From IMG/VR virus record IMGVR_UViG_2630968500_000009: a stretch of DNA of 36,107 bases. One strand, given 5' to 3'. The stretch's first letter is position 1; each line of letters opens with the position of its first letter. Both the position numbers and the translations under genes were made by a program. This stretch comes from a virus. Lineage: Duplodnaviria > Heunggongvirae > Uroviricota > Caudoviricetes. Positions 296 through 4,288 of this stretch are shown here, in pieces. The notes below the pieces were generated by a model. It did not search any database, was not told the origin of the DNA, and was given only the letters and a program-made list of their open reading frames with translations.

Positions 296-320
296 AACCC
301 GCTTCGGCGGGTTTTTGTTT
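296..320 (+). terminator. Rho-independent terminator downstream of hok
   Basis: GC stem AACCCGC / GCGGGTT with TTCG tetraloop followed by a T-run. Confidence 0.5.
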
Positions 321-443: not shown

Positions 444-695
444 ATGATGAACATCGAAGAACTGCGTAAAATTTTTTGTGAAGATGGCCTCTATGCTGTG
501 TGCGTTGAAAATGGAAATCTTGTTAGTCATTACCGCATTATGTGTTTGCGAAAGAATGGGGCTGCGTTAATTAATTTTGTGGATGCTCGGGTCACGGACG
601 GATTTATCTTGCGCGAAGGTGAGTTTGTCACTTCATTACAGGCATTGAAAGAGATCGGAATAAAAGCTGGCTTTTCTGCTTTTTCAGGAGAATAA
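444..695 (+). CDS. rem: Small prophage protein (83 aa), Rem-like by position
   Basis: ORF preceded by GGAAGGA Shine-Dalgarno; position between hok and the DUF968 gene matches K-12 Qin order as I recall it. Function unknown. Confidence 0.45.
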   Translation: MMNIEELRKIFCEDGLYAVCVENGNLVSHYRIMCLRKNGAALINFVDARVTDGFILREGEFVTSLQALKEIGIKAGFSAFSGE

Positions 696-761
696 ACTCA
701 TCTACAATCTTGCGCGGGGCTGAACTCCCGCTGAGTAACACCGTGCCACCGGAGAAAACCG

Positions 762-1040
762 ATGGCACGCAACGCAAAATATTACAATTCTGATAATTCG
801 CCCGTTCTTGCCTGCACGCACGGGCGGTATTCTCACGCATTCAAGTCTGAATGGTTCCAGCACCCTCCATGCACTGCAGAACAGGCCGAATGGCTGATTC
901 ATTCTTACCGCAGGCGCGGGTTCGAGGTTAAGAAAGCTCTCAGTCTCGACTATCGGCACTGGATAATCTCTGTCAGGCTGCCTTATTCCGAACGCCCACC
1001 ACGTGCGTCCCGCACTTTCCAGCAACGGATCTGGAGGTAA
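762..1040 (+). CDS. Hypothetical protein (92 aa), translationally coupled to downstream DUF968 gene
   Basis: ORF whose TAA stop (1038-1040) overlaps the GGAGGT Shine-Dalgarno of the next gene, which starts at GTG 1042. No recognisable domain. Confidence 0.3.
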   Translation: MARNAKYYNSDNSPVLACTHGRYSHAFKSEWFQHPPCTAEQAEWLIHSYRRRGFEVKKALSLDYRHWIISVRLPYSERPPRASRTFQQRIWR

Positions 1041-1041
1041 C

Positions 1042-2091
1042 GTGCGGGTATTACTTAGACCTGTTCTGGTGCCTGAGCTTGGGCTGGTGGTCCTTAAGCC
1101 GGGCCGTGAATCCATACAGATATTTCATAATCCTCGAGTGCTGGTGGAACCGGAACCAAAAAGCATGCGTAATCTGCCATCCGGAGTCGTTCCTGCCGTT
1201 CGCCAGCCGCTGGCGGAAGACAAAACATTGCTGCCGTTTTTTAGTAACGAACGGGTGATTCGTGCTGCTGGCGGCGTTGGCGCATTGTCCGACTGGCTAT
1301 TACGTCATGTTACATCCTGCCAGTGGCCTAATGGCGATTACCATCACACTGAAACAGTCATTCACCGTTATGGTACCGGCGCAATGGTGTTGTGCTGGCA
1401 CTGCGACAACCAACTGCGTGACCAGACATCGGAATCACTGGAGCTGCTTGCTCAACAAAATCTGACAGCATGGGTGATTGACGTCATCCGTCACGCAATA
1501 AGCGGTACGCAGGAGCGGGAATTATCTTTGGCTGAATTATCCTGGTGGGCGGTCTGCAATCAGGTGGTGGATGCACTACCTGAGGCTGTATCGCGTCGTT
1601 CGCTGGGATTACCAGCGGAAAAAATCTGCTCGGTGTACCGCGAAAGCGACATCGTACCGGGAGAGCAGACCGCCACCAGCATATTGAAACAACGCACAAA
1701 AAATCTTGCACCGTTGCCTTACGCCCACCAGCAACAAAAATCACCACAGGAAAAGACGGTGGTAAGCATCACCGTTGATCCAGAGTCTCCGGAATCTTTC
1801 ATGAAGCTGCCTAAACGTCGCCGCTGGGTTAAGGAGAAATACACACGTTGGGTTAAGACACAGCCGTGTGCTTGCTGCGGTATGCCAGCCGACGATCCGC
1901 ATCATCTGATTGGTCACGGGCAGGGCGGAATGGGAACAAAAGCACATGATCTCTTTGTGTTGCCTTTGTGCAGAAAGCATCACAACGAGCTGCATACGGA
2001 TACAGTGGCATTTGAAGATAAGTATGGCTCCCAACTGGAGCTGATATTTCGTTTTATCGATCGCGCGCTGGCAATTGGCGTACTGGCGTAA
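1042..2091 (+). CDS. ydfU: DUF968-family prophage protein with C-terminal HNH-like Cys/His motif (349 aa from GTG start)
   Basis: GTG start 6 nt after a strong GGAGGT SD; C-terminus has CACCG...DPHHLIGHG...CRKHHNELH resembling an HNH/zinc-finger nuclease motif; sits immediately upstream of Q. Confidence 0.6.
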   Translation: MRVLLRPVLVPELGLVVLKPGRESIQIFHNPRVLVEPEPKSMRNLPSGVVPAVRQPLAEDKTLLPFFSNERVIRAAGGVGALSDWLLRHVTSCQWPNGDYHHTETVIHRYGTGAMVLCWHCDNQLRDQTSESLELLAQQNLTAWVIDVIRHAISGTQERELSLAELSWWAVCNQVVDALPEAVSRRSLGLPAEKICSVYRESDIVPGEQTATSILKQRTKNLAPLPYAHQQQKSPQEKTVVSITVDPESPESFMKLPKRRRWVKEKYTRWVKTQPCACCGMPADDPHHLIGHGQGGMGTKAHDLFVLPLCRKHHNELHTDTVAFEDKYGSQLELIFRFIDRALAIGVLA

Positions 2092-2104: not shown

Positions 2105-2857
2105 ATGAACCTTGAAGCCTTACCAAAATATTACTCCCCAAAATCTCCAAAATTGAGCGATGACGCTCCAGCGACAGGCACCGGTTGTTTAACAATTACG
2201 GATGTAATGGCAGCGCAGGGGATGGTGCAGTCGAAAGCACCACTTGGGTTGGCCTTATTTCTGGCAAAAGTTGGTGTTCAGGACCCTCAGTTTGCGATTG
2301 AAGGCCTGCTAAATTACGCGATGGCACTGGATAACCCGACATTGAACAAATTGAGTGAAGAAATCCGGTTACAGATTATTCCTTACCTCGTGAGTTTTGC
2401 CTTTGCTGATTACTCCAGGTCTGCGGCAAGTAAGGCTCGCTGTGAGCATTGTTCAGGTACGGGATTTTATAATGTATTGCGCGAAGTGGTGAAACACTAC
2501 AGACGCGGGGAATCTGTAATCAAGGAAGAATGGGTGAAGGAACTATGTCAGCATTGCCATGGTAAGGGCGAAGCCAGCACAGCGTGCAGAGGGTGTAAGG
2601 GTAAAGGGATTGTTCTGGATGAAAAAAGAACCCGGTTTCATGGCGTACCGGTATATAAGATTTGTGGGCGTTGTAATGGAAACCGGTTTAGTCGTTTACC
2701 GACCACGCTGGCACGACGTCATGTCCAGAAGCTGGTACCAGACCTGACCGATTATCAGTGGTATAAGGGGTATGCGGACGTCATTGGTAAACTGGTAACA
2801 AAGTGCTGGCAGGAAGAAGCATACGCGGAAGCGCAATTGAGGAAGGTGACGAGATAA
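2105..2857 (+). CDS. Q: Late-gene antiterminator Q (250 aa)
   Basis: Position directly upstream of a promoter/terminator pair and the lysis cassette; Cys-rich zinc-finger-like motifs (CEHCSGTG, CQHCHGKG, CRGCKGKG, CGRCNG); SD GGAGA before ATG 2105. Confidence 0.65.
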   Translation: MNLEALPKYYSPKSPKLSDDAPATGTGCLTITDVMAAQGMVQSKAPLGLALFLAKVGVQDPQFAIEGLLNYAMALDNPTLNKLSEEIRLQIIPYLVSFAFADYSRSAASKARCEHCSGTGFYNVLREVVKHYRRGESVIKEEWVKELCQHCHGKGEASTACRGCKGKGIVLDEKRTRFHGVPVYKICGRCNGNRFSRLPTTLARRHVQKLVPDLTDYQWYKGYADVIGKLVTKCWQEEAYAEAQLRKVTR

Positions 2858-2888
2858 ATGATTTTTGCTGAAGATGGCGACATGATGT

Positions 2889-2917
2889 TTGCATTTTTCA
2901 AAAAATATGGATAAAAT
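2889..2917 (+). promoter_or_regulatory. Candidate late promoter (pR'-like) downstream of Q
   Basis: TTGCAT (-35), 17-nt spacer, TAAAAT (-10); about 30 nt after the Q stop, where lambdoid late promoters lie. Confidence 0.3.
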
Positions 2918-2962
2918 TTTTTCAACGATGGGCTTTGTATACCCGACGTTAAGAAAAAGTAG

Positions 2963-2990
2963 AAAACCCGCTGATGAGCGGGTTTTGTGC
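2963..2990 (+). terminator. Candidate tR'-like intrinsic terminator (Q antitermination target)
   Basis: Hairpin AAAACCCGC-TGATGA-GCGGGTTTT followed by a T-rich tract, about 45 nt downstream of the candidate promoter. Confidence 0.45.
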
Positions 2991-3278
2991 TTTAAATGGG
3001 GCAATGGTAATGTTGAATCTCATCCCGGGACTCATGTCTGTTAACTTATTATTTAGCTGGTGACTTGGTTATTTGCCTGATGTTTAAAATGTTTTCTTCC
3101 AGTACAATGTCCCTAAACACAATGAGTCTGCTTATTATATTATTAGCAGAGCTATTACGGCCAAAGTACAGCATAAGCTTTTAAAGCCAATCAACCAGTC
3201 ATCAAGACAGACGGGGTTATTCATAAAAACTCTCCATGTGTGATCCGATGGGGCCTGAAATTAAAGCTTTAATATAGC

Positions 3279-3491
3279 TCATGAAAGGTAAACATTGGCA
3301 GCTGAAGGGCCACGCAGACCATTTATCCGGCAAAATTCCACGCGTAATCCGGTGGTAATTTCTTCTGCATCGCGGAGATTGAGCGCTGAAACATGAAGCT
3401 GGACATCGATACGACCATCGGATGGGGTGATAAGACCCTTGCCGCTTTTGCCGTCAAAGGTTTTGACAATTCCTGTCATTTTACGGGACAA
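3279..3491 (-). CDS. cspF: Cold-shock-domain protein, CspF-like (70 aa)
   Basis: [26 protein letters not shown]... is a divergent CspA-family member; transcribed divergently from cspB. Confidence 0.8.
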
Positions 3492-3791
3492 AAAAATTCC
3501 TTAATACTGATAACTTGGCGCACTATACACACGTTCCTGAAGAAAGCTATAGTTTTTTGATGGGGTTGAAGATGGCTGGATGTCTAAAATAAACATTGCT
3601 TCATATGTTCAACTATGCGTTAATGATTGCGTCGGTTTGAAGAACAGACGATATACGAAGTAGTTTACTAAAGCAGTTCTCATTTCAGGTGTTATTCACT
3701 TATTCCTTCTTTGAGTCTCTCCAATTAAGTACGAAGTCGTTTCTGTTATGCAAACCATTTATGCCGAAAGGCTCAAGTTAAGGAATGTAGA

Positions 3792-4007
3792 ATGTCAAAT
3801 AAAATGACTGGTTTAGTAAAATGGTTTAACGCTGATAAAGGTTTCGGCTTTATTTCTCCTGTTGATGGTAGTAAAGATGTGTTTGTGCATTTTTCTGCGA
3901 TTCAGAATGATAATTATCGAACCTTATTTGAAGGTCAAAAGGTTACCTTCTCTATAGAGAGTGGTGCTAAAGGTCCTGCAGCAGCAAATGTCATCATTAC
4001 TGATTAA
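3792..4007 (+). CDS. cspB: Cold-shock protein CspB-like (71 aa)
   Basis: [23 protein letters not shown]...VHFSAI... carries canonical CspA RNP1/RNP2 motifs; long AT-rich 5' leader. Confidence 0.8.
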
Positions 4008-4288
4008 AATTCATCGCTCGTCTGTATACGATAACGAAGAAGGCTGATGCCTGAGTAGAGATACGGACAGAGTAGTGAATATTGGATCTCTTTAATAAAA
4101 AGTAAGGAGGTCCAATACATGAAACAATGGCTAGCATATTTGGCAAAATATTAATCAGGAAAAGTATGCTAACCATTGTGGTGAAGTGCAGGTTTGCTGC
4201 ATGAATAGTTTTACAGCAGAAGCTAACTGCTGGCATGGCAAAACAAAGTGCGTAAGTGGATGACTCCCACAAAAAGCACCACAATCTC

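Follow-up and report, generated by a model that had tools for sequence, protein, structure and literature searches.

The stretch of DNA analysed here, called the window throughout, comprises 36,107 nucleotides (nt; IMG/VR virus record IMGVR_UViG_2630968500_000009) and is the Qin cryptic lambdoid prophage of E. coli K-12, its first 3 kb being 100% identical to E. coli K-12 strains (C600, J53). The gene order at this end of the window is hokD (72-227), rem (444-695), a 92-codon open reading frame named ORF92 in the following (762-1040), ydfU (1042-2091), ydfT/quuQ (2105-2857), cspF, and cspB, and the locus constitutes the distal end of the early-right ('nin') operon of Qin. ORF92 encodes a small basic protein and ydfU (b1560) a multi-domain DUF968 protein of 349 amino acids (aa), assigned to the YdfU/PdcB family by annotation, by its match to phrog_96, and by homology to PdcB. 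Of 5426 complete E. coli genomes, 4924 contain matches to a region of 2.5 kb around these genes, the median number of places in a genome being two. The explanation that we favour, and hold to be probable though well short of assured, is that ORF92 and ydfU are two separate, co-expressed genes, that YdfU would act as a non-essential, structure-selective DNA endonuclease of the nin recombination module, and that the small protein would be an accessory.

Two genes and their junction

ORF92 extends on the plus strand from ATG 762 to TAA 1038-1040, exactly where the earlier note, made from the sequence alone, had placed a 92-codon frame. Its 92-aa product has an isoelectric point of 10.2 and is carried by the Prokaryotic Genome Annotation Pipeline (PGAP) as hypothetical protein WP_012304870.1; a literature search revealed nothing on WP_012304870. 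A GGAG resembling a Shine-Dalgarno (SD) sequence is located at 751-754 (plus strand), 7 nt 5' of the start codon, and diverged homologues retain GGAG, AGAG or GAGG at this position. Ratios of nonsynonymous to synonymous substitution rates (dN/dS) were calculated by the Nei-Gojobori method between the window and ten diverged Escherichia loci. They range from 0.15 to 0.38 for ORF92 as a whole and from 0.08 to 0.28 for its core residues 27-92, the latter being similar to those of ydfU, which are 0.10-0.21 in those loci whose divergence suffices for the measurement. Constraint is weak in the N-terminal extension (residues 1-26; 762-839, plus strand), an Escherichia-specific and variable segment of 26 residues with in-frame indels and dN/dS values mostly between 0.24 and 1.05. 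The earlier note had allowed for a frame that is unrelated and non-conserved, but ORF92 proved to be conserved and under purifying selection. The dN/dS values and the conservation of its family, described below, rule out a spurious reading frame, and on this sequence evidence ORF92 is a genuine protein-coding gene.

In the reference genome of MG1655 (NC_000913.3), no annotation covers the stretch of 346 bases that separates rem (b1561) from ydfU (b1560). ORF92 lies there at about 1644306-1644584 on the complement strand, and PGAP calls the 92-aa protein in other K-12 assemblies. Since the gene is under purifying selection, its absence from the MG1655 gene list looks like a genuine omission, and this conserved gene of 92 codons could be added to the reference annotation.

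The two genes are encoded in different frames and are separated by a single base. The coupling junction (1033-1044, plus strand) combines GGAGG, the SD of ydfU, with the TAA of ORF92 (1038-1040), one spacer base, and GTG 1042, the T of the TAA being the last base of the hexamer GGAGGT (1033-1038). This overlap had been described in the earlier note and is confirmed by the sequence. The ydfU SD is built from W91-R92 (TGG AGG), the last two sense codons of ORF92. The junction TGGAGGTAA[C/T]GTG is invariant in 85 of 85 close loci and in 10 of 10 more diverged ones, and the spacer is always 1 nt long. An equally tight arrangement is found in the loci of other genera that encode a shorter form of the small protein (see below): there, TGG-GGG-TGA and two bases are followed by the ATG of NinG or YbcO genes, and the last codons of the small gene form the SD of the nuclease gene.

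A hairpin is predicted in the mRNA at 1009-1048 (plus strand), one arm of which, ORF92 codons 83-88 (1009-1022), would pair with both the SD (1031-1037) and GTGCGGG (1042-1048). The local minimum free energy is -19.3 kcal/mol, and 11-14 of the 14 pairs are retained in ten homologous loci, where no compensatory changes occur. The 101-nt fold around the junction is unremarkable in stability (z=-0.64). Since covariation is lacking and z is only -0.64, we regard the modelled hairpin as a plausible physical basis of translational coupling. Coupling itself is probable for ydfU, because ORF92 codons form its SD and codons 83-88 can pair with both this SD and the start. The coupled pair proposed in the earlier note is thus in line with a junction invariant in 85 and 10 loci, and coupling of the two genes is tight and probably translational.

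The ydfU gene comprises 349 codons from GTG 1042 to TAA 2089-2091. The longer start at GTG 1003, used in an old 362-aa model, was rejected: nine homologues of 27-73% identity all begin with MR(V/A)LL at the position of GTG 1042, and RefSeq likewise uses 1042, as the earlier note had done.

YdfU and its domains

Residues 160-346 of YdfU (1519-2079, plus strand) match the Pfam family DUF968 (PF06147) over the complete profile (positions 1-171 of 171; E=1.4e-76), the score of 256.8 bits lying far above the gathering cut-off of 27.8, and YdfU is thus a member of this family. Within this region, residues C276-H318 (1867-1995, plus strand) form the core of an HNH or His-Me finger. The residues concerned are C276-A-C-C279, D285-P-H287-H288, H292, and C310-R-K-H313-H314-N315-E-L-H318, in accordance with the His-Me finger sequence motif. 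From the sequence pattern CxxC...C-x2-(H/C), we assign the CxxC and C310-x2-H313 as putative zinc ligands, H287-H288 as the putative catalytic or metal-binding pair, and H314, N315, and H318 to the helix of the finger. Among YdfU homologues down to 27% identity, C276, H287, D303, and P308-L309 are invariant; the set HH...H-(N/D)-x-x-H is kept in all homologues compared except P1 PdcB. Position 313 is occupied by either His or Cys, as would befit a zinc ligand.

Profile comparisons point in the same direction. Whole YdfU matches phrog_96, 'HNH endonuclease', with E=2.8e-171, and its C-terminal 80 residues also match several other HNH PHROGs. The Pfam family HNHc_6 is matched just below its cut-off (E=6.3e-6, 26.3 bits against 26.6), and RecA_dep_nuc with E=0.0037. 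When the C-terminal domain was compared with the YbcO family (PF07102), for which an alignment was built from loci fetched in this analysis, hhalign gave a probability of 92.6% (E=4.6e-7); the domain is thus homologous to a member of the beta-beta-alpha-metal fold whose structure is solved (3G27). An alignment to the HNH domain of McrA is in canonical register at E=0.9, and a search of PDB sequences with the YdfU profile yielded nothing beyond McrA and zinc-finger noise, at E of about 1. The AlphaFold model of YdfU has a mean predicted local distance difference test (pLDDT) score of 45 and derives from a shallow alignment (77-90% identity), the homologue lists (best 120) containing only close relatives. 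Evidence from its fold is therefore weak, although structural comparisons, like those of profiles, pointed to YbcO and P1 Ref. Taken by its motif, its PHROG and Pfam matches, and the YbcO profile comparison, the C-terminal domain is an HNH/His-Me finger, in agreement with the HNH-like motif that the earlier note had seen there.

This assignment is not new, as the HNH nature has already been published for this very protein. Jablonska et al. (2017) placed DUF968, with YdfU (NP_416078) mentioned by name, in group 7 of the His-Me finger proteins alongside DUF1364/YbcO (3G27) and proposed a role in recombination or repair (PMC5714182). Curtis et al. (2014) stated that DUF968 carries a zinc-finger HNH motif and suggested, with respect to Gram-positive DUF968 proteins, that the region N-terminal to the HNH resembles Orf (PMC4118853). 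For the N-terminal part of YdfU, such a likeness to Orf/NinB was not recovered: the PDB profile search with E<=10 did not contain Orf (1PC6), and there is no NinB match in Pfam. Our literature search found no biochemical data on ydfU or DUF968 and nothing functional on ydfU.

The N-terminal part carries a motif of its own. Alignment of homologues from E. coli, Klebsiella, and Yersinia, from Providencia and Vibrio phages, and from P1 reveals the invariant pattern C93-Q94...C118-W119-x-x-D122-N123-x-x-R126 (1318-1419, plus strand), in which His and Cys alternate at positions 101 and 121. Because of this conserved Cys/His pattern with His/Cys swaps, a structural zinc site is probable. The N-terminal 150 residues correspond to phrog_11007 and have no Pfam match even at E<=10. 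A second, degenerate HNH finger was considered for this domain and rejected, since hhalign probabilities of residues 60-135 against the C-terminal domain, YbcO, and NinG are below 1%; the likeness between N- and C-terminal domains is limited to a stretch of 9 residues (LCWHCDNQL and LCRKHHNEL). PF27659, encountered in 607-aa database proteins, was likewise discarded as a description of the N-terminal domain: it is a faint CHP02642 match on the Q part of read-through fusions.

The small protein family and its neighbours

ORF92 has no match in Pfam or NCBIfam. Its residues 27-92 match phrog_1212 over the full 66 positions of the profile (1-66 of 66; E=1.7e-35), so that membership in this family is established. 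A word-indexed search with ORF92 returned 129 clusters, exclusively from Escherichia and Shigella, with lengths of 90-92 aa and identities down to 63%. Homologues of about 66 aa with 37-48% identity were identified by tblastn against phage genomes in Gifsy-1, Gifsy-2, mEp237, SPN3UB, PY54, phiES15, and phages of Klebsiella, Hafnia, and Edwardsiella. A profile search with the ORF92 family yielded 459 clusters, and 103 relatives, nearly all of them standalone proteins of 60-100 aa, emerged when HMMER was run exhaustively against 1.84 billion representatives. By sequence comparison, ORF92 is the Escherichia long form of the phrog_1212 / N15 QD1 family of enterobacterial lambdoid prophages; in other genera, the homologues are standalone short forms of 66-69 aa. 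Residues K28, H34, C37, T38, Q41, Y49, G53, L60, D63, L73, P74, P80, Q87, and W91 are invariant in long and short forms.

The conserved core (residues 27-92; 840-1037, plus strand) consists of a beta-alpha-beta-beta arrangement, a Pro/Arg-rich linker, and a C-terminal tail. In an AlphaFold2 model built on an alignment of 31 sequences, the core has a pLDDT of about 87-90 and is predicted to contain a strand at 29-33, a helix at 39-52, strands at 55-60 and 67-74, and a short C-terminal helix, while residues 5-23 (pLDDT <50) are predicted to be disordered. The tail, [FWY]-Q-x-[KR]-(A/I/V/M)-W-(G/R), occurs in 144 of the 197 family sequences at hand and is preceded by a P-R-P-S-R linker; residues 88-92 of ORF92 correspond to positions 1023-1037 of the window. 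Its constraint may be dual, the final two codons doubling as SD of the next gene.

The tail also resembles a docking peptide of the clamp-binding type. The family might be a docking adaptor: its tail, being similar to the beta-sliding-clamp-binding motif (Q-x-x-hydrophobic-aromatic), would tether it to the host clamp or to another hub of the replisome or of recombination, and it would thereby direct or time the nuclease translated next (NinG, YbcO, RusA or YdfU). We consider this a very improbable proposition. If true, the ORF92 family would represent an unrecognised, nuclease-agnostic part of lambdoid recombination modules, and ORF92 itself an unannotated functional gene in E. coli K-12.

The neighbours differ between long and short forms. 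Downstream of the small gene, all long-form loci encode a DUF968 protein of 348-352 aa. What precedes the pair varies (rem, hok, ParDE, and others), and so does what comes after it, namely RusA plus one of three different Q families or, in K-12, Q directly. As the pair is constant while both flanks vary, it moves in Escherichia as a single mosaic unit. The 29 short-form loci from other genera carry NinG (19), YbcO/DUF1364 (6), RusA (2) or another gene (2) downstream of the small gene. Immediately upstream, 26 of them encode a DUF1367 protein of about 200 aa, usually at a gap of no more than 8 nt (loci L082-L118, e.g., 2896-3498 in L083). Since short forms precede NinG, YbcO, and RusA, the small protein is no obligate partner of DUF968 but a regular member of the nin-region recombination block, indifferent to the junction nuclease that follows. 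The earlier note had stated that this slot often holds functions of anti-defence or DNA processing; the latter part is substantiated by the presence of NinG, YbcO, and RusA in relatives, while anti-defence found no counterpart in a significant match to the PADLOC models. A small family located between DUF1367 and a junction nuclease, whose gene it supplies with a ribosome-binding site, offers a handle on uncharacterised nin-region genes.

Several explanations compete with the reading of two separate, co-expressed genes. According to the earlier note, the two frames could also be one ancestral gene split by a frameshift, and a database protein of 438 aa, P0167, does fuse ORF92, minus its last three residues, to YdfU. 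This sole fusion is one sequence on one contig. None of the 103 relatives found by HMMER forms the N-terminus of a DUF968 protein (0/103), and P0167 aside, no relative among the representatives scanned has an ORF92 domain before DUF968, so that the comparison with DUF968 N-termini proposed in that note gave no match. In all loci compared, each gene retains a start, an SD, and a stop of its own, and the ORF92 homologues of other genera stand alone. YdfU homologues down to 27% identity share the start residue, and elsewhere they begin with the same MRxLL behind unrelated genes: a KilA-N-like protein of 269 aa in mEp460 and YeP2, a protein of 262 aa in a Providencia phage, a deoxyribosyltransferase-like protein in Vibrio phage Her, and PdcA in P1. 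The family scan, the conserved starts, SDs, and stops, and the shared start residue rule out a split gene; we assign it next to no probability, and it can be dropped. A different proposal, which we hold to be unlikely, is that ORF92 and YdfU constitute a dedicated two-subunit system, with the small protein as inhibitor, immunity factor, chaperone or specificity subunit. The adjacency with its 1-nt spacer, kept without exception in the long-form loci despite variable flanks, argues for it, as do the co-occurrence of the Escherichia-specific N-terminal extension with DUF968 only and the fact that coupled translation would deliver both proteins together. However, each family occurs without the other, and the short forms precede mutually unrelated folds (NinG, YbcO or RusA). 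Moreover, full-length YdfU homologues in mEp460, YeP2, P1, and Providencia, Klebsiella, and Vibrio phages are preceded by unrelated genes, among them P1 PdcA, which is unrelated to ORF92, and the N-terminal extension itself is nearly unconstrained.

The reverse association, with a similarly low probability in our estimate, would tie the small protein to the upstream DUF1367, a putative recombination mediator, instead of any nuclease, and would make it a leftover of DUF1367 loss in Qin-type prophages. It draws on the DUF1367 genes found directly upstream at gaps of at most 8 nt in 26 of 29 short-form loci, in which the nuclease on the other side is not constant, and on the mEp237 record, which labels the DUF1367 protein as a NinB/Orf-like mediator. 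Against it stand the persistence of the long form under purifying selection in thousands of E. coli prophages without DUF1367, the lack of DUF1367 in PY54 and two other loci, and the fact that no function is known for DUF1367; our literature search found nothing functional on it. That YdfU, alone or together with ORF92, is a prophage-encoded effector of defence or anti-defence and not a recombination nuclease appears very unlikely. With the PADLOC models, ORF92 has no match, and YdfU has PglZ (E=0.078) as its sole match, no domain of which passed, so that neither protein is assigned to a defence system. Both genes belong to the conserved nin-Q operon, with RusA and Q as neighbours, and this is no known defence hotspot; DUF968 has been grouped with the recombination nucleases YbcO, NinG-like, and Ref-like proteins (PMC5714182).

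Apart from the fusion P0167 (438 aa), the databases contain further oddities that look like products of assembly or mutation. YdfU-Q read-through fusions are among P0168, P0169, and P0171 (607 aa). Additional entries are P0097 (96 aa), P0272, P0172, P0175, and P0121; the kinds seen comprise an ORF92/YdfU deletion chimera, tandem duplications within YdfU homologues, and a duplication in a Salmonella small protein.

Prophage setting, proposed role and known systems

The gene rem (b1561; 444-695, plus strand), known from the RefSeq annotation, ends 66 nt upstream of ORF92. On the other side, quuQ/ydfT (2105-2857, plus strand) encodes the late antiterminator Q, according to annotation and Pfam (Antiterm, E=3.6e-54), and is the downstream end of the same operon as ORF92 and ydfU. 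A scan of the plus strand from 762 to 2857 for terminators revealed none but a weak site inside ydfU. Strong terminator-like hairpins are located at 296-313 (plus strand), after hokD, and at 2963-2986 (minus strand), just 3' of quuQ. As no comparable site separates ORF92, ydfU, and quuQ, the arrangement is consistent with one transcription unit. Further downstream, the Rfam cspA thermoregulator RF01766 was found at 3631-4023 (plus strand; 158.8 bits), covering the leader and start of cspB, as expected for the cspB of Qin.

Most Qin-type relatives carry a RusA gene between DUF968 and Q (L122-L126, about 3834-4211); K-12 Qin lacks it, and ydfU abuts quuQ. Due to the presence of RusA in most of these relatives, DUF968 accompanies RusA, as YbcO does in DLP12 and mEp237, and is no substitute for it. 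In some E. coli, degraded copies of the small gene, frameshifted or cut to 52 aa, lie beside fragmented DUF968 genes (about 3054-3212 in L092, 3001-3201 in L119). The module thus also decays in some cryptic prophages.

The reading that we prefer, with two separate, co-expressed genes and YdfU as nuclease, can be put as a sequence of events. Late in the early-right transcript, ribosomes finishing ORF92 would expose or re-use the initiation site of ydfU, and both proteins would be made together just before Q. YdfU comprises an N-terminal, probably zinc-binding Cys/His domain and, beyond a linker that is helical and disordered, an HNH/His-Me finger at its C-terminus, in which the putative catalytic or metal-binding histidines are retained. 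We infer that it would be a zinc-stabilised, divalent-metal-dependent HNH endonuclease, with the N-terminal domain probably providing recognition of DNA or of a partner. By analogy with Rap and P1 Ref, it may nick or trim branched intermediates of replication or recombination (D-loops, junctions) during lytic growth; such a role is most likely, judging from the NinG/YbcO/RusA slot and from its relatedness to YbcO and Ref. For the small basic protein, co-expressed with YdfU, we envisage an accessory function in this recombination module through binding of nucleic acid or protein. The existence of both genes, the selection acting on them, the geometry of their junction, the family assignments, and the synteny are shown here, whereas nuclease activity, its substrate, and any part played by the small protein are inferred. 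Beyond annotation, this reading of YdfU has little significance, since the protein had already been named as a His-Me finger protein and its slot is the well-known NinG/RusA recombination slot.

Among known systems, ORF92 resembles phrog_1212, N15 'Orf QD1', PY54 ORF47, and Gifsy-2 STM1021.1n by virtue of its residues 27-92. Identities are 38-39% to the proteins of Gifsy-2, mEp237, and PY54 and 32% to N15 QD1, the top fold match of ORF92 in BFVD. What sets it apart from the phrog_1212 short forms is a disordered N-terminal addition of about 25 residues, together with its pairing with DUF968, whereas the short forms lie between DUF1367 and NinG or YbcO.

On the side of YdfU, the YbcO/DUF1364 protein (DLP12, phage 82; 3G27) is a single domain of about 96 aa, while YdfU has about 250 more residues, namely the N-terminal Cys/His domain and the linker. 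In the case of P1 Ref, a RecA-dependent HNH nuclease (3PLW; RecA_dep_nuc), the Pfam score of YdfU is 17.8 against a gathering score of 26.9, and the YdfU model is of low confidence. Gruenig et al. are said to have described Ref in 2011 as a protein of 186 aa with a disordered basic N-terminus that requires RecA filaments. The branch-specific endonuclease NinG/Rap of lambda (PF05766) occupies the same position in the nin operon as YdfU, before Q; in Gifsy-2 and 18 other loci, its gene likewise directly follows that of a short-form ORF92 homologue. Both nucleases belong to one superfamily (NinG in His-Me group 24; PMC5714182), but their domain architectures differ, and YdfU is no member of the NinG family, with no Pfam match to PF05766 at E<=0.1 and an hhalign probability of 10.5%.

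P1 PdcB is a full-length homologue of YdfU, with 26% identity over 347 aa (E=3e-45). In the P1 locus examined (L128), pdcB extends from 2405 to 3448, and pdcA (2177-2377) lies upstream; its 66-aa product is like the short forms in length only, and PdcA was rejected as an ORF92 homologue (hhalign probability 0.15%). Unlike ydfU, pdcB is located after phd-doc and not in a nin operon, and its HNH helix is degenerate, with His and Asn lost (CQRDIER versus HHNELH in YdfU). The literature search returned nothing functional on pdcB, which is reported to be non-essential, like lambda ninG (PMC10695390). PdcB shares with YdfU the N-terminal motif C...CWHxDNxxR, and the two proteins are thus full-length homologues with an uncharacterised Cys/His domain in common.

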